From a virus (taxonomy: Duplodnaviria > Caudoviricetes): 64,000 nucleotides of DNA. The translations under genes and the position numbers were made by a program. Under the pieces are notes generated by a model. It had not been told where the DNA came from and searched no databases. It saw only the letters and a list, made by a program, of their open reading frames with translations. Where the stretch lies: the IMG/VR virus record IMGVR_UViG_3300037418_002332, one strand, 5' to 3'. Each line of letters starts with the position of its first letter. Position 1 is the stretch's first letter. Of the stretch, positions 2,770-62,944 are shown piece after piece.

Positions 2770-3283
2770 CAACGGAACTACATGGTTAGACAATTGGGTG
2801 AATGGAATGCAATATGATGACGATGAAAAACGACGGGGAGATTTAGCAAATGACTATCCGTTGCTCACTGAAGAACAAATCACCCCATATATGTCAAAAT
2901 GTATGGAACCTTTGATGGAACTAAACAAAGGTTTGTTCGCAAACGTGCAAGACGTTATGATTGATGAATTTAAATACATTCGAAGAATGGTTAATTTCAT
3001 GGCAGATATGGGAAATGTCCATATAATTGCTGATCAAAAACGACAACATACTCCATCATCAGTTACTTGGTTTAAACAAAATGGTGATAAGATTTTTGTT
3101 AACTTCATTATTCAAAAAACTGAAGTTTTAGCAGATATTTACAATGCGGTGTATGACTCAATCCTTAATCATGAATCTATAATTATAGCAAATATCAAGC
3201 CACACGTATCAGAATACAACGCCATTACTGCTAGGGCAACAAAGGTAGAGTATCTATTTGCGATGGCATCGATACCAAAATAA
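2747..3283 (+). CDS. hypothetical protein
   Basis: 178-aa ORF in operon-like packing. Confidence 0.65.
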   Translation: MAMSLSTNNGTTWLDNWVNGMQYDDDEKRRGDLANDYPLLTEEQITPYMSKCMEPLMELNKGLFANVQDVMIDEFKYIRRMVNFMADMGNVHIIADQKRQHTPSSVTWFKQNGDKIFVNFIIQKTEVLADIYNAVYDSILNHESIIIANIKPHVSEYNAITARATKVEYLFAMASIPK

Positions 3284-3297
3284 CAAAAAGGATAAAA

Positions 3298-4347
3298 ATG
3301 ACAGACGACTTTTTCTTAGATCTACTAAACGACAATGACATCGAAGTTGTAGAAGACATTCCTGAAACTGGATTTGTTGATACAGGTTCATATGCGTTGA
3401 ACGGATTGATCTCTGCATCAATTTATGGCGGCATTCCAAATAATCGTGCAATCATGTGGGCTGGTGCGCCATCAGCAGGTAAAACATACTTCACACTTTC
3501 ATGTATCAAAACATATTTGGACAAAGATCCAATGAACAATGTGATTTTCTTTGATACTGAATTCGCACTTGAAAAAGAAATGATTGCGAAACGAGGCATC
3601 GATCCTAAGCGTTTCAAAATCGTTGACGCTGAATCTCTTCAAGACTTCAGAACAAAATCAGTCAAATTCTTGGATGCTTTTGAAGCTGCAAAGAAAAAAC
3701 CAAATGTCATGTTGGCATTGGATTCACTGAGCAACTTGGCAACCAATAAAGAAATCGCCGACGCTGCGGCTGGTAATGACGTTCGCGATATGACCAAAGC
3801 ACAGGTCATTCGTGGTATTTTCAGAATCATCACCCGTAAACTCGGCAAAAATCAAATTCCACTTTTGATGACAAACCATATCTACAGTTCAATGGATATG
3901 TATTCACCAGTTGTCATTTCAGGTGGTCAAGGCGCATTGTACGCAGCGTCAACGGTCGTAACTTTGAACAAGTCTAAACTCAAAGAAGGTGCTGATGTCA
4001 TCGGTAATATCATCAGGGCAACCACTTACAAGTCTAGATATTCAAAAGAAAACCAAAAGGTTGAATTGAAGTTGGACTATGACACCGGTCTAGATCGTTA
4101 CTATGGTCTGTTACCACTTGCTGAAAAATACAATGTCATCAAGAAAGTTTCAACACGTTATGAACTTCCTGATGGCGCTAAAGTATGGGGCAAGGAAATC
4201 AATGAAAATCCTGAACAAGTTTTTACAAAGGATATTCTTGATAAGCTGGATAAGGTAGCAAAGTTGGAATTTGGACTTGGTGGTTCAACGGATGGTGAAG
4301 AATTCATCATCAATGAGGAAGTTGCCAAACAACAAGAGGCAGAATAA
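3298..4347 (+). CDS. uvsX: RecA-like recombinase UvsX
   Basis: DTGSYALN, Walker A GAPSAGKT, DTEFA, LDSLSNL, ISGG motifs; between gp43 and gp41. Confidence 0.95.
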   Translation: MTDDFFLDLLNDNDIEVVEDIPETGFVDTGSYALNGLISASIYGGIPNNRAIMWAGAPSAGKTYFTLSCIKTYLDKDPMNNVIFFDTEFALEKEMIAKRGIDPKRFKIVDAESLQDFRTKSVKFLDAFEAAKKKPNVMLALDSLSNLATNKEIADAAAGNDVRDMTKAQVIRGIFRIITRKLGKNQIPLLMTNHIYSSMDMYSPVVISGGQGALYAASTVVTLNKSKLKEGADVIGNIIRATTYKSRYSKENQKVELKLDYDTGLDRYYGLLPLAEKYNVIKKVSTRYELPDGAKVWGKEINENPEQVFTKDILDKLDKVAKLEFGLGGSTDGEEFIINEEVAKQQEAE

Positions 4348-4350
4348 TAG

Positions 4351-5739
4351 TTGAAGACTACTTCACAAACTATCATATACAATCTAATCAATAATGAGGA
4401 TTTCCATAAGAAAGTAATTCCGTTTTTAATGTCTGACTATTTCGAAAATGCTGGCGAACAAGTCATGTTCGATCACATTTACGCTTACAGTCAGAAATAT
4501 GCCAAAGTTCCAACTTTGGAAGCTTTGTTCATTGAAATTGGTAACAATAAGAAAGTTACAGAAGGCCAGGCAGCGGAAGTTGATGGTCTTCTTAAAATCT
4601 TGAAGGAACCAAGTGAACCAGTGGACTTAACTTGGCTTGTTGAAAAGACGGAAGAATTTTGTAGAGATAGAGCAATCAACAACGCGGTGATGGAGGCAAT
4701 CTCCATCATCGACGGTGAAAACAAAAAGCTTGGAAAAGGTGCAATTCCTGATCTATTGAAACAAGCACTTGCGGTTGGTTTCGATACAAGCCTTGGTCAT
4801 GATATCTTTGAAAATGCTCCAGATCGTTGGGAATATTATCATCGAGTTCAAGAAAGAATTCCATTCAATCTTGACTATTTCAACAAGATTACCAAGAACG
4901 GATTTGCTAAGAAAACGTTGAATCTTTTCCTGGCCGGAACGCACGTTGGTAAAACTGCAATAATGATTCATCAGGCAGCTTCAAATCTGGCTGATGGCAA
5001 AACTATCGTCTATTTTACATTGGAAATGGCTGAAGAAGAAATTTCCAAAAGAATAGACGCAAACTTGATGGGCTTGGATATCACAGATATCGAAACCATT
5101 TCCAAAGACCAATATTTGAAAAAGATTGGTCAATTGAAAGCCAAACATACTGGTCGTTTGATCGTTAAGGAATATCCAGTCGGTCAAGCGAATATCAATC
5201 ACTTCAGACATTTTCTGAATGAGCTCAAACTCAAGAAGAATATCGTTCCTGATGTGGTGTATGTTGACTATTTGAATTTGTGTAACTCATTCAGATTGGT
5301 AGGCAACAATTCAGCCAATTCATATACCATGATGAAGGCGGTGTCGGAAGAACTCCGTGGTTTAGCTATGGAAATGAATCTTTGTATCGTATCCGCTTCT
5401 CAGTTCAATCGTGCAGGTGCGAATAACACTGACCCAGAAATGGGTGATATCTCTGAATCATTCGGTGTCGCGTTCACTGCCGATTTTATTGCGGCTTTGA
5501 TCGTCACAGACGAATTTAAGGAGCAGGACAAGATGATGGTCAAACAGTTGAAAAATCGATACGATGATATGAACAAAATCCCATCATTTTTCATAGGATA
5601 CAAACGATCTAAGCAAAAATTCTACGATGCGGACTTGACTCAATCGGATGAATCACCTATAGTGACAAAGGAGACGCCAGTGTTTGATGCTGGCAAATTC
5701 AACACCAAAAAACCGAATTTAGGAGATTGGAAGCTGTAA
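4351..5739 (+). CDS. gp41: Replicative DnaB-like helicase gp41
   Basis: AGTHVGKT, TLEMAEE, VDYLNL, SASQFNR, SESFG, KQLKNRY motifs. Confidence 0.96.
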   Translation: MKTTSQTIIYNLINNEDFHKKVIPFLMSDYFENAGEQVMFDHIYAYSQKYAKVPTLEALFIEIGNNKKVTEGQAAEVDGLLKILKEPSEPVDLTWLVEKTEEFCRDRAINNAVMEAISIIDGENKKLGKGAIPDLLKQALAVGFDTSLGHDIFENAPDRWEYYHRVQERIPFNLDYFNKITKNGFAKKTLNLFLAGTHVGKTAIMIHQAASNLADGKTIVYFTLEMAEEEISKRIDANLMGLDITDIETISKDQYLKKIGQLKAKHTGRLIVKEYPVGQANINHFRHFLNELKLKKNIVPDVVYVDYLNLCNSFRLVGNNSANSYTMMKAVSEELRGLAMEMNLCIVSASQFNRAGANNTDPEMGDISESFGVAFTADFIAALIVTDEFKEQDKMMVKQLKNRYDDMNKIPSFFIGYKRSKQKFYDADLTQSDESPIVTKETPVFDAGKFNTKKPNLGDWKL

Positions 5740-5927
5740 TGTACAAGATCATCAAAAATTCTGCTGGAAAATTCGATTTGATTGAGCTCGCTACTGAGCA
5801 AGTGGTCGGAGTGTTTGATGACCATGGTGCTGCAAAAAAGCAGTACAATCGGTTCAAGGGTGGAGTGGCGTTCAATGGATGGACGCCATCTTTCTTTTTG
5901 ATTAATGTAATGGAGTATACAAAATGA
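5739..5927 (+). CDS. small hypothetical protein
   Basis: ATG overlaps gp41 TAA; GGVAFNGWTPSFF motif. Confidence 0.6.
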   Translation: MYKIIKNSAGKFDLIELATEQVVGVFDDHGAAKKQYNRFKGGVAFNGWTPSFFLINVMEYTK

Positions 5928-6469
5928 AAACATATGCTGGTATTGGGTCAAGGGAAACACCAGAGGATGTTTGTTTGATCATGAAGAATTTGGCCACCAA
6001 GCTTGAAGCTTTTGGTTACACGCTTCGCAGTGGTGGTGCGGAAAAAGCTGATCAGGCATTCGCATCTGGCGTGACAAAGAAATCAAATATGCAAATCTTC
6101 CTCCCTTGGCGCGGCCATAATGCGATTGATTCGATTTACACCGAACCATCCGAGGAAGCTATGGAATTGGCGGAAGCTTATCATCCTGCTTGGAACAAGA
6201 TGGGTGAACGAGGCAAATTGCTTCAAGGTCGAAACAGCCATATCATCCTGGGTGAAAATCTCGATGATCCTGTTGATTTCGTGATCTGCTGGACCCAAAA
6301 TGGTGGAGTCATGGGCGGCACAGGCCAAGGGATGCGAATTGCCAATTCAAAGAAAATTCCAATTTATAATCTGCGTAATGAAGCAGACATTCAAAAACTG
6401 AGCGCATTCCTAGCAACTCTTACTGAACAAGCAGTCAAGGAAAAGGACGCCAAGAAAATTTGGGAATAA
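5924..6469 (+). CDS. SLOG/DprA-like Rossmann-fold protein
   Basis: YAGIGSRETP, LRSGGAEKAD, GGTGQGMRIA motifs. Confidence 0.7.
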   Translation: MKTYAGIGSRETPEDVCLIMKNLATKLEAFGYTLRSGGAEKADQAFASGVTKKSNMQIFLPWRGHNAIDSIYTEPSEEAMELAEAYHPAWNKMGERGKLLQGRNSHIILGENLDDPVDFVICWTQNGGVMGGTGQGMRIANSKKIPIYNLRNEADIQKLSAFLATLTEQAVKEKDAKKIWE

Positions 6470-7161
6470 AGTACATGCCAGTTTTGGGATACATTTCAGA
6501 CCTTCATCTTGAATTTAGGAAGGATATGGTCAAGGACGGAGTTTCATTTGATGATGTTGTAATTGATTATTTCAACAGCTTCACTGGAAAAATCGACTTT
6601 TTGATCATTGCAGGTGATATTCATTCGGATCAGAAAAAGCGTGAGAAATTTCTTTCACGTCTGACTGTACCTGTGAAATATGTCATGGGCAATCACGACT
6701 TTTTCAAACTGGAAGTGTATGACGATTTCTTTGATGAGGACGGAATCACCGGAGCAGGTCTCTGGACCAACTTCAATAACAATCCGTTGAATGAAATCAT
6801 TGCACGTGAACAGATTTGGGATTATCGTTGGATACCAAAATGGACCACTGAAAAATGCAAGGCACTGCATTTTGAGCAAATGCGAAAGATTATGGCCAGT
6901 CCATCTGAAATCGTAGTGACTCACTTTCCACCTTCATTCGGTTCAATCACTGATCGTTTTAAAGGTGATCCATTGAGCACCGCATATTTCTGTAACAATC
7001 TTGATTCTCAGATTTTAGGATCAAACAAAAAGTTGTGGATTCACGGTCACGTTCATTCGGATCACGATTATATGATCGGTGATTGTCGAGTGGTTTGTAA
7101 TGCGATGGGATATCCTAATGAGTTGCACAAAAGACAAGAGATAAAAATCATAGATATTTAA
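6460..7161 (+). CDS. Calcineurin-like metallophosphoesterase
   Basis: SDLHLE, AGDIH, GNHD, THFPP, WIHGHVH motifs. Confidence 0.9.
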   Translation: MGIKYMPVLGYISDLHLEFRKDMVKDGVSFDDVVIDYFNSFTGKIDFLIIAGDIHSDQKKREKFLSRLTVPVKYVMGNHDFFKLEVYDDFFDEDGITGAGLWTNFNNNPLNEIIAREQIWDYRWIPKWTTEKCKALHFEQMRKIMASPSEIVVTHFPPSFGSITDRFKGDPLSTAYFCNNLDSQILGSNKKLWIHGHVHSDHDYMIGDCRVVCNAMGYPNELHKRQEIKIIDI

Positions 7162-7198
7162 AGATTTTACTTTTCTTTTTGAATCAATTCAGCTACAA

Positions 7199-55812: not shown

Positions 55813-55890
55813 GCTCTCGTATCGGCACAGTTTCCTAAACTGTCGCACCGTAATGGACCGATGCGGGTTCGATTCCCGCCGAGAGCTCCA
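55813..55890 (+). ncRNA. tRNA-Arg(CCT)-like RNA lacking a D-arm
   Basis: acceptor gctctcg/cgagagc, anticodon arm acagt-ttCCTaa-actgt, T-arm gcggg-ttcgatt-cccgc, CCA. Confidence 0.7.
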
Positions 55891-56595: not shown

Positions 56596-56723
56596 GATGA
56601 CCGACCTTGAAGCTGAACTGCTTCGCCTTAAGACGAAGCGTGACCTCGCTCATTTTTCGCTCTCAAACTGCAAAAATTCATCCCATCGTCTGATATTGGA
56701 TAAATCCATTGAAGACCTGACTC

Positions 56724-57050
56724 GTGAAGTGGATCGTTTGGAAGCTTGGAGGGAAGCTGTTACCCATGGTTAAGATGCTCACGGACAAGAATGGTCGAAA
56801 GTTCCAGGAACGGAACTCGATTGTCGATGAGGAAAATCATCGAATTCTGACTGAGGAAGGCTGGAAGTATTGGAAGATCAACTTCTGGGGCCATCGCGTG
56901 TCACCAAATGGTGAACGGCTCCACTGGTTCAATTCTCTTCGCGATGCAGAACTTTTCGTGCTGATCACGGAATATCCTCGCAGCATTGAACGTTTCGCAT
57001 TTCCTTACAATTATACCATCTACGATGGTCAGCTGACGGAGATTTTCTAA
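56724..57050 (+). CDS. hypothetical protein
   Basis: ORF; true start likely downstream (MVKMLTDK). Confidence 0.55.
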   Translation: MKWIVWKLGGKLLPMVKMLTDKNGRKFQERNSIVDEENHRILTEEGWKYWKINFWGHRVSPNGERLHWFNSLRDAELFVLITEYPRSIERFAFPYNYTIYDGQLTEIF

Positions 57051-57451
57051 TGGCTGGGTGGACAAAGTCTAAGAACAAGTGGACGTTTCATTCAATTGTC
57101 AATGACGGAACTGAAGTTAGCGCAACGATCACCGCTGTTCCATATGGCATTGAATGGATTGTTCGTGAATTCAATGTCAAAGCAGCCGAAGGATTTATTT
57201 CTTTCGATGATTGTCCTCCAACTGATGATCATGTTGTTGATGAAAAGTGGGCTTGGAACAAGGCAAAACTGAAAGCAGAAGATGCAATTTGCTACATTCC
57301 TGGTCTCCCTCGGATTATGTGGCCTGAGCAGTATTCACTCGGCGCCATCCTCGAGAAGGCTCGTGAAAGACTGCTTGAACGTTGCCGCGAAGCAATTGCA
57401 AACTCGAATTTCGAAATTACCGAATTCAAGGTTCTGAACGGAGACAAGTGA
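57050..57451 (+). CDS. hypothetical protein
   Basis: 133-aa ORF. Confidence 0.55.
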   Translation: MAGWTKSKNKWTFHSIVNDGTEVSATITAVPYGIEWIVREFNVKAAEGFISFDDCPPTDDHVVDEKWAWNKAKLKAEDAICYIPGLPRIMWPEQYSLGAILEKARERLLERCREAIANSNFEITEFKVLNGDK

Positions 57452-57657
57452 TGACCGCTGGTGAAATTTTGAAGTATATTGTCGATAACATGGGTTGGTA
57501 TCTTCTCGCAGCGCCATTTGGTGTTTCGGGTATCTATGCCCTGCTATTGGCGTTTGAAACCGGCTTGCGTCGCGGTTATCGACCCATGGCTGATCGTGTT
57601 GGTCTGGTCTGGGTTGGCTTGTTTCTGCTGTGGATTACTTATTGTATGGTGACTTAA
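57451..57657 (+). CDS. membrane protein
   Basis: two TM segments. Confidence 0.55.
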   Translation: MTAGEILKYIVDNMGWYLLAAPFGVSGIYALLLAFETGLRRGYRPMADRVGLVWVGLFLLWITYCMVT

Positions 57658-58046
57658 TGTATACTCGTGAAGAAATCACCTTTGCAACTTATTTGTTCTG
57701 GTATCAAAACATTGATGATCCGAACATTGTGTTGACTGCTGATCAGATTGAAGTTATGTACGCTGAAGCTCGCAAGTTTATGCCAACTGTGCCTGATTTG
57801 GTTTCGAGGCTTCGCTCAACAGATGCATCAACTTCAGCCGATATCATGGTTCATTTTTATGATGTTGGCAAGCAGTATTTTGGTGAAGAGAAACAACAGC
57901 TGTTTCGTTTCTTTGCATTGTTGTATCTGGTGATTTGGGGCAAGTCAGCTGGACCAAGGTTTGGTGAGTTTGCCGTTCTTTATGGTCGTGACAACTTTGC
58001 CAATCTCATTGAAGAAAAGTTTGCAGAAGCAAAGACTTTCATTTAA
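57657..58046 (+). CDS. stand-alone class I lysyl-tRNA synthetase C-terminal (anticodon-binding) domain
   Basis: FYDVGKQYF...FFALLYLVIWGKSAGPRFGEFAVLYG resembles LysRS-I WFKALYEVLLGxSQGPRFGxFIALYG (recalled). Confidence 0.75.
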   Translation: MYTREEITFATYLFWYQNIDDPNIVLTADQIEVMYAEARKFMPTVPDLVSRLRSTDASTSADIMVHFYDVGKQYFGEEKQQLFRFFALLYLVIWGKSAGPRFGEFAVLYGRDNFANLIEEKFAEAKTFI

Positions 58047-58057
58047 GGAATTGATTG

Positions 58058-58681
58058 ATGAACGCACCAGTGAATCTTGATGAAATTCAACGTGAAACCT
58101 ATCGTGAAGATATTGCTGGACTGAATGTCCACAATCATCTCAAGGACAAGTCTGTTCCTGAGCTTCGCGACATTTCAATGTCCGATCGGTTCCCATTTGC
58201 AGTCATGGCTTTGTCTTTGACTGGTGATGGCAACGTTGGTGGCATTGTTCGTTCGGCTGTTCTTCACGGTGCTGAAAAGGTTTGGATTTACGGTCGTCGA
58301 AAGTTCGACAAGCGTCCAACCGTCGGTTCGTTGAATTACATCGATCATGAAATCATCGATGGATTTGAAGATAACAAGCCTGGAATTTTCGATGTTCAGA
58401 AGTTTATGACGATTATCGCTGAAAACGAATATTTTCCAGTATTTGTTGAACAAGGCGGAACTTCTCTTGAAGAATTCGATTGGAATGCATTGCCTGATAT
58501 GAAAATTCTATTGGTGTTGGGAAACGAAACCAACGGCATTCCAGAAGAATTTATGAAGGTGATGGAAGACCTTTCGGAGATCGTATCAATTCCTCAACGC
58601 GGAGTGATTCGTTCATTCAATGTTTCCAACGCAATGAATATTGTCACATGGGATATGAGAATGAAGAAAAAGTGGTTCTGA
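58058..58681 (+). CDS. SPOUT RNA methyltransferase (TrmH/SpoU family)
   Basis: GNVGGIVRSA, LVLGNETNGIP, SIPQRGVIRSFNVSNA. Confidence 0.92.
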   Translation: MNAPVNLDEIQRETYREDIAGLNVHNHLKDKSVPELRDISMSDRFPFAVMALSLTGDGNVGGIVRSAVLHGAEKVWIYGRRKFDKRPTVGSLNYIDHEIIDGFEDNKPGIFDVQKFMTIIAENEYFPVFVEQGGTSLEEFDWNALPDMKILLVLGNETNGIPEEFMKVMEDLSEIVSIPQRGVIRSFNVSNAMNIVTWDMRMKKKWF

Positions 58682-58714
58682 AGGCTTTACTTTAGAACCA
58701 CTTTCAATTAGGAA

Positions 58715-59131
58715 TTGTATATGGAAAAAATTGCTGAAGTTGATTATAATGATTTGGAATTTGTTTGGGTGAGTTCCCATTACGATGTCCATTTGGCTGG
58801 TCTTTGTCGATATCAAGGTCAACTGTGCAAATTTACAACCGACATGCAAGATAATCCCAATTGGGATCGTGAACGTGCAAGAAACGATGATGATTATGAA
58901 GAGGATTTGTATATCCTCACATGCACAGTTTACAAACTTTCCTTTGTTGAAAAATTAAAAGAACTGTATTCAAAGAAAAAATTTGAATGGTGCGTTGGTT
59001 ATCATTGGTCATATCCTGATCGTGGTAATTTTTACATTCGTAAACCAAAGTGGTTGTTCAGAGCACTGTTCAACTGGCATTATTATGGGTTTGATTTTTC
59101 TAAATGGAGAAATCGCTCAATATTGAGATAA
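58715..59131 (+). CDS. hypothetical protein
   Basis: 138-aa ORF. Confidence 0.55.
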   Translation: MYMEKIAEVDYNDLEFVWVSSHYDVHLAGLCRYQGQLCKFTTDMQDNPNWDRERARNDDDYEEDLYILTCTVYKLSFVEKLKELYSKKKFEWCVGYHWSYPDRGNFYIRKPKWLFRALFNWHYYGFDFSKWRNRSILR

Positions 59132-59208
59132 GCTTCCGTAGCTCAGTTGGTTAGAGCAGGGATCTCTAAAATCCTGTGTCGTGGGTTCGAGTCCCACCGG
59201 TCGCGCCA
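59132..59208 (+). tRNA. tRNA with CUA anticodon (amber suppressor-type)
   Basis: D-arm gctc-agttggtta-gagc; gggat-ctCTAaa-atcct; T-arm gtggg-ttcgagt-cccac; CCA; two acceptor mismatches. Confidence 0.8.
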
Positions 59209-59223
59209 TTTTTCATGAGGTAA

Positions 59224-59877
59224 GTGATGGATGATGAAGACAAATACGATGAAGCTCTTGAGGAAGCTGAAGATAAAAAGGCTCTGAAGCTTCTCAAACA
59301 AATTTGTAATTCGGAATTCAAATCATACAAAAAATATATTGCTGAAGACAAATATCATGACACCTTTGGTGCTGGTGATATTCTCCATTCTAAAAAGTGG
59401 ACACCTGAAGAAATGTGTAAGCAGTTCATTTGGGCTTACATGATTCGCGGTGCAATCCAAGATTGGGGATTGTTTGGTGAAGAAGCTGTTGATCAAAAGT
59501 TCGAAGACCTCTATTATCAAATTGCGGCAATGAATATTGGTACTGACGAATTCGATGATAAATATCGACCATTGATCATCGAAGTTGAAAATATCATTCG
59601 CAATCGTAACAGTGACAAACGATTAGATCGTTTATATCCTGGCGTTTTTAGGCGCAGTGAATATAATCGTCCAACATTGGTTTGGACTGTGTTGAGTTCT
59701 GACATTGGATTGAATTATGGTCCATTCTTTGTTGAAAAAGAAGAAGCCGAAACCTTTCAAAAAGAACATTTCAGTCATGAACTGTCAAAACATCCTCTAC
59801 AAAGAGTGTTGATCACGCCAGTAAAAGAAGAATGGTTAGAACAAAACCGAATTGTTGAAAACGAGGAAGATGACTAA
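59224..59877 (+). CDS. hypothetical protein
   Basis: 217-aa ORF. Confidence 0.6.
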   Translation: MMDDEDKYDEALEEAEDKKALKLLKQICNSEFKSYKKYIAEDKYHDTFGAGDILHSKKWTPEEMCKQFIWAYMIRGAIQDWGLFGEEAVDQKFEDLYYQIAAMNIGTDEFDDKYRPLIIEVENIIRNRNSDKRLDRLYPGVFRRSEYNRPTLVWTVLSSDIGLNYGPFFVEKEEAETFQKEHFSHELSKHPLQRVLITPVKEEWLEQNRIVENEEDD

Positions 59878-60598
59878 AACTGTAGCAATTTTATCGACTC
59901 TTTTATTTGTATGGATCACATTAACTGTTGGATTGGCAATAAGCAATCAACATCCTACTCTTGAAGACAATATCAATTCCACCGTTGTGATCGTTTCCGG
60001 CAACGGTAGTGGTTCCGGTGTTTTGATCAATCCCAATCAAGTGTTGACTGCGTTTCATGTGCCAATGGCTGACGCAAACAGTCCTGATTATGTTATCTTC
60101 AAAAATTCAGGTCGCGCAACAATCAAAACGAAAATCGTCGCATCAAGCTATGAACAAGATTTGATTGTGATGAATTTGGATAAACCAAACACAAAAGTGA
60201 AACCTGTCAATATCGATTGTGGATTGCCTGATGTTGGTGATGAAGTATATGCAGTTGGCGAGCCTGAAGGTTTTTGGTGGATGGTGAGATGGGGTCATGT
60301 TGTTGATCCTGAAAATTCAATCATTCGTGAAGGTGAATTCAGATTGCCTTCAGACTACATCAAGGAAGAATTTTTATTCACCATTGATTTGAACATGATG
60401 CACGGTAATTCGGGTGGTGGTATTTTCAATCAAGATACAGGTAATTTAATCGGAATTGCATCCCAAATGTGGTTGAAGCAATTTGCGGATAAGACTGGTG
60501 AAACGCAACAATTATACATGCAAATGGGCTTTCCCGTTCGCGGAAATGTGATTTGTAAATTTTTAGACGACAACAAAATTTCATATACAAAGGGTTGA
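59870..60598 (+). CDS. membrane-anchored trypsin-like serine protease
   Basis: N-terminal TM; GSG, LTAFHV, DLIV, HGNSGGG triad motifs. Confidence 0.88.
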   Translation: MTKTVAILSTLLFVWITLTVGLAISNQHPTLEDNINSTVVIVSGNGSGSGVLINPNQVLTAFHVPMADANSPDYVIFKNSGRATIKTKIVASSYEQDLIVMNLDKPNTKVKPVNIDCGLPDVGDEVYAVGEPEGFWWMVRWGHVVDPENSIIREGEFRLPSDYIKEEFLFTIDLNMMHGNSGGGIFNQDTGNLIGIASQMWLKQFADKTGETQQLYMQMGFPVRGNVICKFLDDNKISYTKG

Positions 60599-61149
60599 TA
60601 ATGAATATTGAAGCAGCAATGGAACGACTGAAAGCTGAGGGTGGATTTCATCATTGGTTCAAGAAAGATGAACGTTCTCTTGAAGAATGGAAAAATGAAG
60701 ACCCCATTGGGTTTGACGAATTTGCTGCCGTTGCTGAACGCATTGTTCGGGCCGGCACTGGTTATCTACCAACAGTCGTTTGTTGTTTGGTTTTGGAAGA
60801 ATCAGGTGGGTTGATTCTTGTGAAACGCAGTGATTGGAATAAATGGGCATTGCCAGGTGGCATTCAAGACCCAGGCGAATCATGGCAAATGACTGCTGTT
60901 CGTGAGGTTTTTGAAGAAACCGGACACCAAATCAATCAAGTCACAATCATTGACGTGGCAACTGTTCCAGAATGCAACATTATTTTTTGTTATTCTAATC
61001 ACATAAAGTACGATTCTACTTTACTTTTTGATCAAAATGAAATAGAGTTGGTGGCGTTGATGAATTCGGCCCCTGCGGAAGATAAAATTGCTTTTCCAAC
61101 TCATGCCCAAATCATCAAAAGATATTTTGATCAAATGAATGGAAATTGA
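60595..61149 (+). CDS. Nudix hydrolase
   Basis: GGIQDPGESWQMTAVREVFEETG Nudix box. Confidence 0.9.
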   Translation: MIMNIEAAMERLKAEGGFHHWFKKDERSLEEWKNEDPIGFDEFAAVAERIVRAGTGYLPTVVCCLVLEESGGLILVKRSDWNKWALPGGIQDPGESWQMTAVREVFEETGHQINQVTIIDVATVPECNIIFCYSNHIKYDSTLLFDQNEIELVALMNSAPAEDKIAFPTHAQIIKRYFDQMNGN

Positions 61150-61152
61150 TTT

Positions 61153-61575
61153 ATGACACCAGTGCTGTACATTCTGATGCGTTCCGATCTGGATTCAATG
61201 AATCCTGGTAAGGCTATGGCGCAAGCTTCACATGCTGCCAACGCTATGGTTGCCAAGTTCCATGATCTGGATAAGAAGAATGAACTGACCGACGATGAGA
61301 AGGCTTTGTTTTACACGTGGCAGAGTTCCACTCCACAAGGCTTTGGCACTGCTATCGTTCTGGATGCTCTGAATGAAGAAGGCATCAACGATATCATTTT
61401 CGACGCAACTGTGAAGCATAAAAACAACGATTTTTTCGCAGATATTATTAATGATCCTACTTATCCTGTTAGAGACGGTGCTGTAACTCACTATATATCA
61501 GTGAATACATGCGGCTATGTTTTTGCTAATACGGAAAAGTGGAAGCCGAACAAGAAATATTCACTGCACAAATAA
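61153..61575 (+). CDS. PTH2-like peptidyl-tRNA hydrolase
   Basis: YILMRSDL.SMNPGKAMAQASHA. Confidence 0.75.
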   Translation: MTPVLYILMRSDLDSMNPGKAMAQASHAANAMVAKFHDLDKKNELTDDEKALFYTWQSSTPQGFGTAIVLDALNEEGINDIIFDATVKHKNNDFFADIINDPTYPVRDGAVTHYISVNTCGYVFANTEKWKPNKKYSLHK

Positions 61576-62861: not shown

Positions 62862-62944
62862 GGATCGGTGACCCGAGTGGCGAAGGGCGCGGGCTTTTAA
62901 TCCGCTATACAACACCGTGGGTTCGAGTCCCACCCGATTCACCA
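62862..62944 (+). tRNA. tRNA-Lys(TTT) with 11-nt variable region
   Basis: gcggg-ctTTTaa-tccgc; T-arm; ACCA. Confidence 0.8.

Follow-up and report, generated by a model that had tools for sequence, protein, structure and literature searches.

Why would a tailed phage keep the last part of a lysyl-tRNA synthetase as a gene of its own? The question is raised by a small gene in the 64,000-nucleotide DNA stretch of IMG/VR virus record IMGVR_UViG_3300037418_002332 (Duplodnaviria; Caudoviricetes), the whole of which is called the window in what follows. A preliminary description made from the sequence alone had taken the 129-amino-acid product of this gene (P0001, hereafter the cage protein) for the anticodon-binding domain, standing alone, that belongs to class I lysyl-tRNA synthetase (LysRS-I), and the coordinates of the open reading frame, its length and the YDVGK and FFALLYLVIWGKSAGPRFGEFAVLYG strings that it reported are all present in the translation. 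The explanation that we find best overall, at a probability of roughly 0.5, is that a LysRS-I alpha-helix cage was captured, has been kept as a phage protein family and acts in trans in tRNA maintenance.

Residues 44-124 of the cage protein match positions 447-525 of the 528 positions of the NCBIfam lysine--tRNA ligase model NF001968 (E 1.5e-13), with a score of 50 bits where the cut-off is 648, and TIGR00467 is matched as well (E 7e-4). When the profile of the family (114 small hits) was aligned by hhalign with ten full-length LysRS-I, residues 34-126 were placed against 423-516 at 99.7% and E 1.9e-26, and the same profile matches the P. horikoshii LysRS-I (PDB 1IRX) over residues 440-510 (E 8e-9). 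The Y..GK / F...Y / GPR.G.F....G signature that marks the alpha-helix cage at the C-terminus of class I LysRS is also present. By these comparisons, the resemblance of the protein to the LysRS-I C-terminus is far above chance. Of the catalytic domain of the enzyme nothing was found: in the window, and in the related loci that tblastn with full-length LysRS-I matched, its C-terminal 51-94 residues were the only part to align, and Pfam gave no match in the cage protein to PF01921 (tRNA-synt_1f), the Rossmann catalytic domain with HIGH and KMSKS. Judged by its domain content, the cage protein is not a lysyl-tRNA synthetase, and its first description as a LysRS-I-derived anticodon-recognition domain standing alone without a catalytic domain is borne out by the NF001968 and hhalign matches together with the missing PF01921. 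Of the two models by which that description expected the domain to be recognised, the LysRS-I model is matched but Anticodon_2 (PF19269), which spans domains IV and V and does match true LysRS fragments, is not, even at E<=1. No family was assigned to the protein by Pfam, PHROGs or PADLOC (the last at E<=0.01), the Pfam models for KTSC (at E<=1), YqeY and tRNA_bind gave no match in it, and a PDB search with its single sequence returned only a chance match (3RWN, E 0.12).

The extent of the captured piece is set by its fold. The AlphaFold2 model of the cage protein is a six-helix bundle (predicted local distance difference test, pLDDT, 96.9), and its top 24 PDB matches after re-alignment with VIA-align are all either domain V of bacterial glutamyl-tRNA synthetase (GluRS) or residues 438-523 of LysRS-I (Z 6.4-8.9, with 84-97 residues aligned); GluRS domain V and P. 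horikoshii LysRS-I 438-523 come best at Z 8.5-8.9, and the next unrelated fold in the comparison reaches Z 5.3. The helical anticodon-binding region of these enzymes is made of subdomains IV and V, of which V is the conserved alpha-helix cage forming the anticodon pocket for bases 34 and 35 (PMC12088422). Since its structural counterpart in the synthetases is confined to their final 84-97 residues, the cage protein corresponds to subdomain V only, the distal half of that region, and as modelled it is an alpha-helix cage fold superposable on domain V. The name anticodon-binding domain, as originally given, holds for the distal cage (the equivalent of domain V, 1IRX 438-523) but not for the proximal helical bundle (the equivalent of domain IV), which is missing. 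With the LysRS-I C-terminus (1IRX) the protein shares homologous sequence, signature residues and fold (Z 8.5, root-mean-square deviation 2.6 A over 86 residues); it differs from the enzyme in having neither the Rossmann catalytic domain nor the stem-contact fold nor the proximal helical bundle, and in being phage-encoded and independent, with an N-terminal helix of its own. The bacterial GluRS domain V (T. thermophilus 1J09/1GLN 378-468, T. maritima 3AFH 390-486) is structurally the nearest (Z 6.4-8.9), whereas its sequence similarity to the cage family is marginal (2O5R, E 0.066) and the U35-stacking arginine of GluRS is a tyrosine in the cage protein.

Column statistics on 107 stand-alone proteins and 17 LysRS C-termini revealed that Y68, K72, R83, F86, Y90, G99-P100-R101, G103, F105 and G110 are common to both sets (frequencies for the main motifs are given in Table 1), F41, F67 and F114 being conserved in addition only among the stand-alone proteins, in which the LysRS-invariant G71 and G95 are relaxed. 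In the alignment with T. maritima GluRS 2O5R, by an inferred mapping, Y90 falls on the conserved U35-stacking arginine of GluRS, a residue that in LysRS-I is a tyrosine (PMC12088422). Y90, F86, L82 and F102 would all occupy the positions expected for U35 stacking and the base-34 pocket, as placed by this alignment with an inferred T. thermophilus numbering rather than by superposition. Given that the polar and aromatic residues kept are the same as in the parent domain, for which no role other than anticodon recognition is known, the ligand would still be a tRNA anticodon loop, and binding of the cage protein to such a loop appears reasonably probable.

The cage protein belongs to a family and is not the remnant of a broken synthetase gene. 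An exhaustive phmmer search against 1.84 billion representatives retrieved 197 proteins at E<1e-3, and the small matches among them fall into two populations when scored by the LysRS-I hidden Markov model (HMM): truncated LysRS, which exceed 80 bits and align from residue 1, and a larger group at 37-72 bits whose members align with HMM positions ~430-514 alone and begin with 14-80 unaligned residues of their own. A set of 107 members of the latter group (clusters at 50% identity, ~107) are 105-170 amino acids long. The N-terminal segment of their own, together with LysRS HMM scores lower than those of true fragments, argues for a stand-alone family rather than fragments. In the cage protein itself this segment (residues 1-33) has no sequence match in LysRS-I, yet it is conserved across the stand-alone proteins. 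Homologues at 50% identity are 128-129 amino acids long and can be aligned from the N-terminus; because of this, and because the ATG overlaps the upstream stop codon (TAATG), position 57657 is the right start. Domain fusions were considered and rejected, the longer matches P0091, P0106 and P0118 being LysRS fragments and the others carrying no Pfam domain in their extensions, and P0108 was discarded as low-complexity noise. In the 2309-residue protein P0017, 11 distinct segments resemble the first 45 residues of the query (E 2e-12), which is probably due to repeats or to composition. In a tree of the stand-alone proteins and the LysRS C-termini (90-residue domain) the branch separating them has support 0, from which single and multiple capture cannot be told apart.

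None of five diverse members (P0001, P0013, P0015, P0032 and P0006) had a tblastn match in the 50,697 GenBank phage records of INPHARED, and pattern-based scans, for which alignments A1 and A3 were too diverse, retrieved two loci from metagenomes and none from GTDB genomes, a result limited by the method that does not demonstrate absence. Our literature searches found no description or characterisation of a free-standing cage family. Small look-alikes abound in the ESM Atlas and the AlphaFold DB under names given automatically, for example "anticodon binding domain-containing protein", so automatic annotation has already met the family. The AlphaFold DB clusters A0A0L6CWX1 (153 amino acids), A0A149TPF4 (209) and A0A7X6JUQ6 (264) match the model over residues 1-123 or 1-129 (E 2e-3 to 5e-3). 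Judging by such unnamed UniProt entries, cellular genomes or prophages may also encode cage proteins, either stand-alone or fused in other ways.

Gene contexts were compared in 20 lineages, drawn from JGI, ENA, Logan and IMG/VR contigs. All 20 look like phages: they have T4-type genes for replication or recombination, homing endonucleases or lysins, or contigs of 159-376 kb. In 12 of the 20 lineages the distance from the cage gene to a tRNA gene is at most 2 kb, and in 8 of these 12 at most 0.5 kb, the narrowest gaps being 5 nucleotides (L014), 10 (L021), 19 (L005) and 45 (L020). Against a chance rate of ~0.16 per lineage, taken from the share of the window (~16%) found at most 2 kb from a tRNA gene, this gives a binomial P of ~1e-5, which is optimistic as the lineages are related. 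Enzymes that act on tRNA or repair RNA recur in the same neighbourhoods (Table 1). In jumbo phages, modules of tRNA and RNA-repair genes have been described as an answer to host anticodon nucleases, in an account that names PTH2 and a free LysRS KTSC domain and is silent on the cage family (PMC7824862). The tRNA and RNA-repair neighbourhood fits a predicted tRNA-directed counter-defence role of the cage protein.

Some individual loci deserve mention. In L019 a compact putative tRNA-repair cassette (3256-6429) lies directly upstream of the cage gene, with an AAA_33 kinase, a Metallophos phosphoesterase, an Nlig-Ia N-domain and a Thg1-like 3'-5' polymerase. In L015 (184-1012) and L016 (228-1056) a gene for a 152-residue AAA_33 protein, polynucleotide-kinase-like, overlaps the cage start by 8 nucleotides, an arrangement that suggests translational coupling of the pair.

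We propose that a phage lineage captured the distal anticodon-recognition subdomain of class I LysRS, which would then have been retained as an independent family in uncultured tailed phages. The cage protein would still recognise a tRNA anticodon loop, most likely through U35/U36 of tRNA-Lys as does the parent domain; its specificity for tRNA-Lys we put a little short of even odds. As the protein is small, acidic and without the proximal half of the binding region, we favour a role in trans, in which it would serve as a specificity or recruitment factor and partner enzymes would supply the affinity for the tRNA backbone. The candidate partner in the window phage is the probably co-transcribed SpoU 2'-O-methyltransferase, and in other phages the candidates are Rnl-type ligases, polynucleotide kinase (PNK)-like kinases and HAD_SAK_2 phosphatases, with the outcome that tRNA-Lys under attack from host anticodon nucleases, whether already cleaved or only at risk, would be repaired or made resistant. 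As a precedent for action in trans, a free distal domain of GluRS reportedly stimulates a C-truncated GluRS, in work of Dubois and colleagues (2009, Biochemistry 48:6012, cited in PMC4393105) on an artificial construct with domains IV and V of the E. coli enzyme as a separate polypeptide. Unlike that free E. coli domain, the cage protein is natural, is equivalent to domain V only and has no known truncated synthetase partner. The parts of this proposal do not stand equally firm. A function as adaptor for repair or modification enzymes is tentative, and it is rather doubtful that the protein is a counter-defence factor in the full sense and of a class not recognised before, that is, a portable reader of the tRNA(Lys) anticodon that would guide healing, sealing or 2'-O-methylating enzymes to the loop, or directly block access to it, and would thereby, in bacteria of soil and water, counter the tRNA-Lys-cleaving immunity of PrrC, RloC and PARIS-type nucleases.

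Several observations weigh against this proposal. The cage protein itself has a phenylalanine where R83 is conserved. Its isoelectric point of 4.8 and net charge of -5 (family median isoelectric point 4.76) are unusual for an autonomous RNA binder, though the cage within LysRS-I is acidic as well. The equivalent of domain IV, which in GluRS supplies the contact to base 36 by Arg358 (PMC12088422, in its discussion of GluRS subdomains), is missing. Adjacency to SpoU is limited to four related and syntenic lineages and is thus not independent evidence, phage tRNA islands gather many small accessory genes of all kinds, and the lineages compared are not fully independent of each other. Nor does tRNA-Lys stand out from the other tRNAs of the adjacent arrays: of the 13 lineages whose flanks contain tRNA genes, 8 have it, a frequency close to that of tRNA-Glu, tRNA-Met or tRNA-Ile, and the idea that the cage gene co-occurs specifically with a phage tRNA-Lys did not hold.

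The same acidity, a trait of many phage inhibitor proteins, makes it conceivable that the fold has been re-used for a target other than tRNA, for instance as an acidic protein-binding inhibitor or mimic directed at a host factor, the conserved residues being then merely structural. The family-specific F41, F67 and F114, the new N-terminal helix and some contexts with no link to tRNA (NADAR/Macro genes in L026, GmrSD_N/methyltransferase genes in L024) point in this direction. In the former (5380-7186), a 210-kb phage contig, NADAR and Macro-domain genes of ADP-ribose processing flank the cage gene and no tRNA gene lies within 6 kb. However, the conserved polar residues Y68, K72, R83, Y90 and R101 are the same as in LysRS-I, in which the domain has no other known role than anticodon recognition, and the bias of the neighbourhood towards tRNA and RNA repair is strong; such a re-use is improbable in our view, though of the alternatives it survives best.

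Only slightly less probable is a plain anticodon shield, as put forward in the preliminary description, in which the cage protein alone would bind the anticodon loop of tRNA-Lys and sterically block nucleases of the PrrC, RloC or AriB type. It is well known that tRNA-Lys is the classic target of PrrC, the conserved anticodon pocket is that of LysRS-I, and the gene sits in islands of tRNA and RNA-repair genes such as have been taken for an answer to anticodon nucleases (PMC7824862). Against it, an acidic protein with only half of the binding region is unlikely to reach high affinity on its own, and a stoichiometric mask on the anticodon would block decoding too.

A third alternative is that the cage protein is a cofactor of aminoacylation, acting in trans on lysylation by aiding the host LysRS-I, or a hypothetical phage mini-synthetase, with the unusual phage tRNA-Lys, or by modulating the host LysRS-I. 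The precedent of a free GluRS distal domain that reportedly stimulates a truncated GluRS speaks for it, and so does the G2.U71 pair of the tRNA-Lys of the window, of L007 and of L011, which suggests LysRS-I hosts; the pair is found in L011/L004 alike and is absent from the tRNA-Lys of L020-L022. G2.U71 is an identity element for LysRS-1 in Borrelia and an antideterminant for class II LysRS, and U35 and U36 are LysRS-1 determinants (PMC9976931). The G2.U71 pair of the phage tRNA-Lys would fit hosts that use class I LysRS, for example alphaproteobacteria of the rhizosphere. On the other hand, tblastn detected no LysRS-like catalytic core in the window or the cage-bearing loci, an intact host LysRS has a cage of its own, and the pair is missing in L020-L022, all of which leaves a cofactor of aminoacylation unlikely and somewhat behind the shield. 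That the cage protein traps host tRNA-Lys as a host shut-off, so that only the atypical phage tRNA-Lys would serve, is very unlikely, for although this tRNA is indeed atypical in its 83 nucleotides and 11-nucleotide variable region, its anticodon loop is the canonical CUUUUAA, by which an anticodon reader could not tell host from phage tRNA-Lys, the protein is an acidic half-domain, and many family members occur in phages without tRNA-Lys in the flanks examined. Both the shield and the sequestration of host tRNA-Lys are less likely than the adaptor acting in trans that we favour.

Table 1. Features of the cage gene and its surroundings; positions refer to the window, and L numbers to related loci.
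Feature	Location	Strand	Remarks
Cage gene (P0001)	57657..58046	+	ATG at 57657; TAA ends at 58046; 129 amino acids
Family-specific acidic N-terminal helix and loop (residues 1-33)	57657..57755	+	Helix 4-17 in model; family consensus
LysRS-I-homologous part (residues 34-126)	57756..58034	+	~95 last LysRS-I residues; hhalign, 1IRX match
Y68-D-V-G-K72 motif	57858..57872	+	Y68 in 97%, K72 in 98% of stand-alone members; both conserved in LysRS-I
Y90	57924..57926	+	99% stand-alone; 100% LysRS-I
G99-P100-R101	57951..57959	+	100/84/99% stand-alone; 100/100/94% LysRS-I
Hydrophobic open reading frame upstream, 91 amino acids	57382..57657	+	TAA stop overlaps cage ATG (TAATG)
SpoU-family RNA 2'-O-methyltransferase	58055..58681	+	PF00588, E 1.7e-19; AGGA ribosome-binding site; starts 8-11 nucleotides past cage stop
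Amber tRNA (CUA anticodon)	59132..59208	+	ARAGORN and Rfam, 58 bits; nearest tRNA gene, 1.1 kb downstream
PTH2-like peptidyl-tRNA hydrolase	61153..61575	+	PF01981, E 3e-7; phrog_1866, E 1.6e-22; conserved in L007-9, L010
tRNA-like gene	55813..55887	+	Rfam RF00005, 34.8 bits; 1.8 kb upstream of cage gene
Phage tRNA-Lys(UUU), 83 nucleotides	62862..62944	+	11-nucleotide variable region; canonical CUUUUAA anticodon loop; G2.U71 pair
SpoU methylase beside cage	window, L001, L007-9, L010		4 lineages
PTH2 near cage	window, L007-9, L010		3 lineages
RNA ligases (or Nlig) near cage	L010, L019, L020, L021, L028		Including Rnl1-type (L028)
AAA_33 kinase near cage	L015, L019		
HAD_SAK_2 "Swiss Army Knife RNA repair" phosphatase domain near cage	L005, L020-22		
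Metallophos near cage	L012, L018, L019, L025		
Thg1-like near cage	L019		
TilS-like near cage	L021		
YqeY near cage	L010		3.4 kb away

The window derives from a T4-like phage, with a family B DNA polymerase, a UvsX-like RecA, a gp41-type helicase, a ribonucleotide reductase, a type II topoisomerase and an ATP-dependent ligase, and its GC content is ~39%. The DNA polymerase reaches at best 43.6% identity, to T4-like cyanophages, and megablast of 10 kb of the window against GenBank phages gave no nucleotide match; near-identical DNA was found in soil and rhizosphere metagenomes.

The open reading frame upstream of the cage gene has no family match in Pfam, PHROGs or PADLOC, and the overlap of its TAA stop with the cage ATG suggests that the two are translationally coupled. 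On the other side, the arrangement of the SpoU and cage genes makes it probable that they are co-transcribed. The SpoU protein gives sub-threshold matches to RlmB, TrmL and TrmH, and its nearest solved relative is the methyltransferase domain of human TARBP1 (2HA8, E 1e-7). Among related phages it is 58-68% identical, the adjacent cage protein 33-37%. A predicted complex of a SpoU dimer with the cage protein reached a median score of 0.32 against 0.41 for the control, which speaks neither for nor against such a pairing. Contigs from RNA libraries, aligned to 56600-59200, leave the cage gene uncovered and the DNA contigs are fragmentary, so that they are uninformative on expression; positions 58129-58356, within the SpoU gene, are matched without a difference by a 228-nucleotide contig from a metatranscriptome library of the rhizosphere, which may be DNA carry-over.

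An amber tRNA(CUA) gene also stands just after SpoU in L007 (7567-7643), a relative with a 37%-identical cage protein. Both amber tRNAs have the discriminator G73 and the pairs G1-C72/C2-G71, the acceptor stem of the window copy having two mismatches and that of L007 none; a derivation from tRNA-Lys was considered and is ruled out by G73 and C2-G71. Between SpoU and PTH2 lie genes for a secreted or membrane-anchored trypsin/DegS-like serine protease (59852-60598) and a NUDIX hydrolase (60595-61149), and a Trypsin_2 gene is also found near the cage gene of L022.

Other synthetase-derived or synthetase-related pieces provide a frame for these findings. YqeY and the GatB tail, Trbp111/CsaA and the stand-alone KTSC of jumbo phages (PMC7824862) resemble the cage protein in that a tRNA-binding domain appended to a synthetase exists as an independent small protein, in phages as part of modules that support translation, but their folds and families are unrelated to it. 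Glu-Q-RS (YadB) is likewise a natural truncated paralogue within the same group of class Ib synthetases, and a mirror image of the cage protein: it keeps the catalytic domain without the anticodon-binding domain, whereas the cage protein keeps only part of the latter. The all-helical fold of the cage protein is unlike that of the KTSC domain. The repair of tRNA-Lys by Pnkp and Rnl1 of T4 against PrrC has its likeness in cage loci with an Rnl1-type ligase (L028), an AAA_33 kinase and HAD or Metallophos phosphatases; unlike these loci, T4 has no cage protein, nor did tblastn with five members find one in the cultured phages of GenBank.

Free-standing pieces of synthetases (AlaX, YbaK, YqeY, Trbp111, Glu-Q-RS) have repeatedly proved to have a biology of their own, and we know of no prior description of a helical anticodon cage of GluRS or LysRS-I type as a free protein. 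Free synthetase-derived tRNA-binding domains as such were known already; what is new is that phages carry a free LysRS-I/GluRS cage, in association with islands of tRNA and RNA-repair genes. Its ~107 clusters, seen only in uncultured phages, belong to a part of the genome devoted to surviving the attack of the host on tRNA. Should the protein not bind tRNA, it would be an instance in which a synthetase domain took on another purpose. Should it read the anticodon of tRNA-Lys, it would represent a minimal natural anticodon-recognition module and a possible tool, the gene may mark phages whose hosts use class I LysRS, and a new, simple and testable component would be added to the tRNA arms race. 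Judged by the place of its family among tRNA and RNA-repair genes, the cage protein probably helps the phage to keep its tRNAs working during infection.

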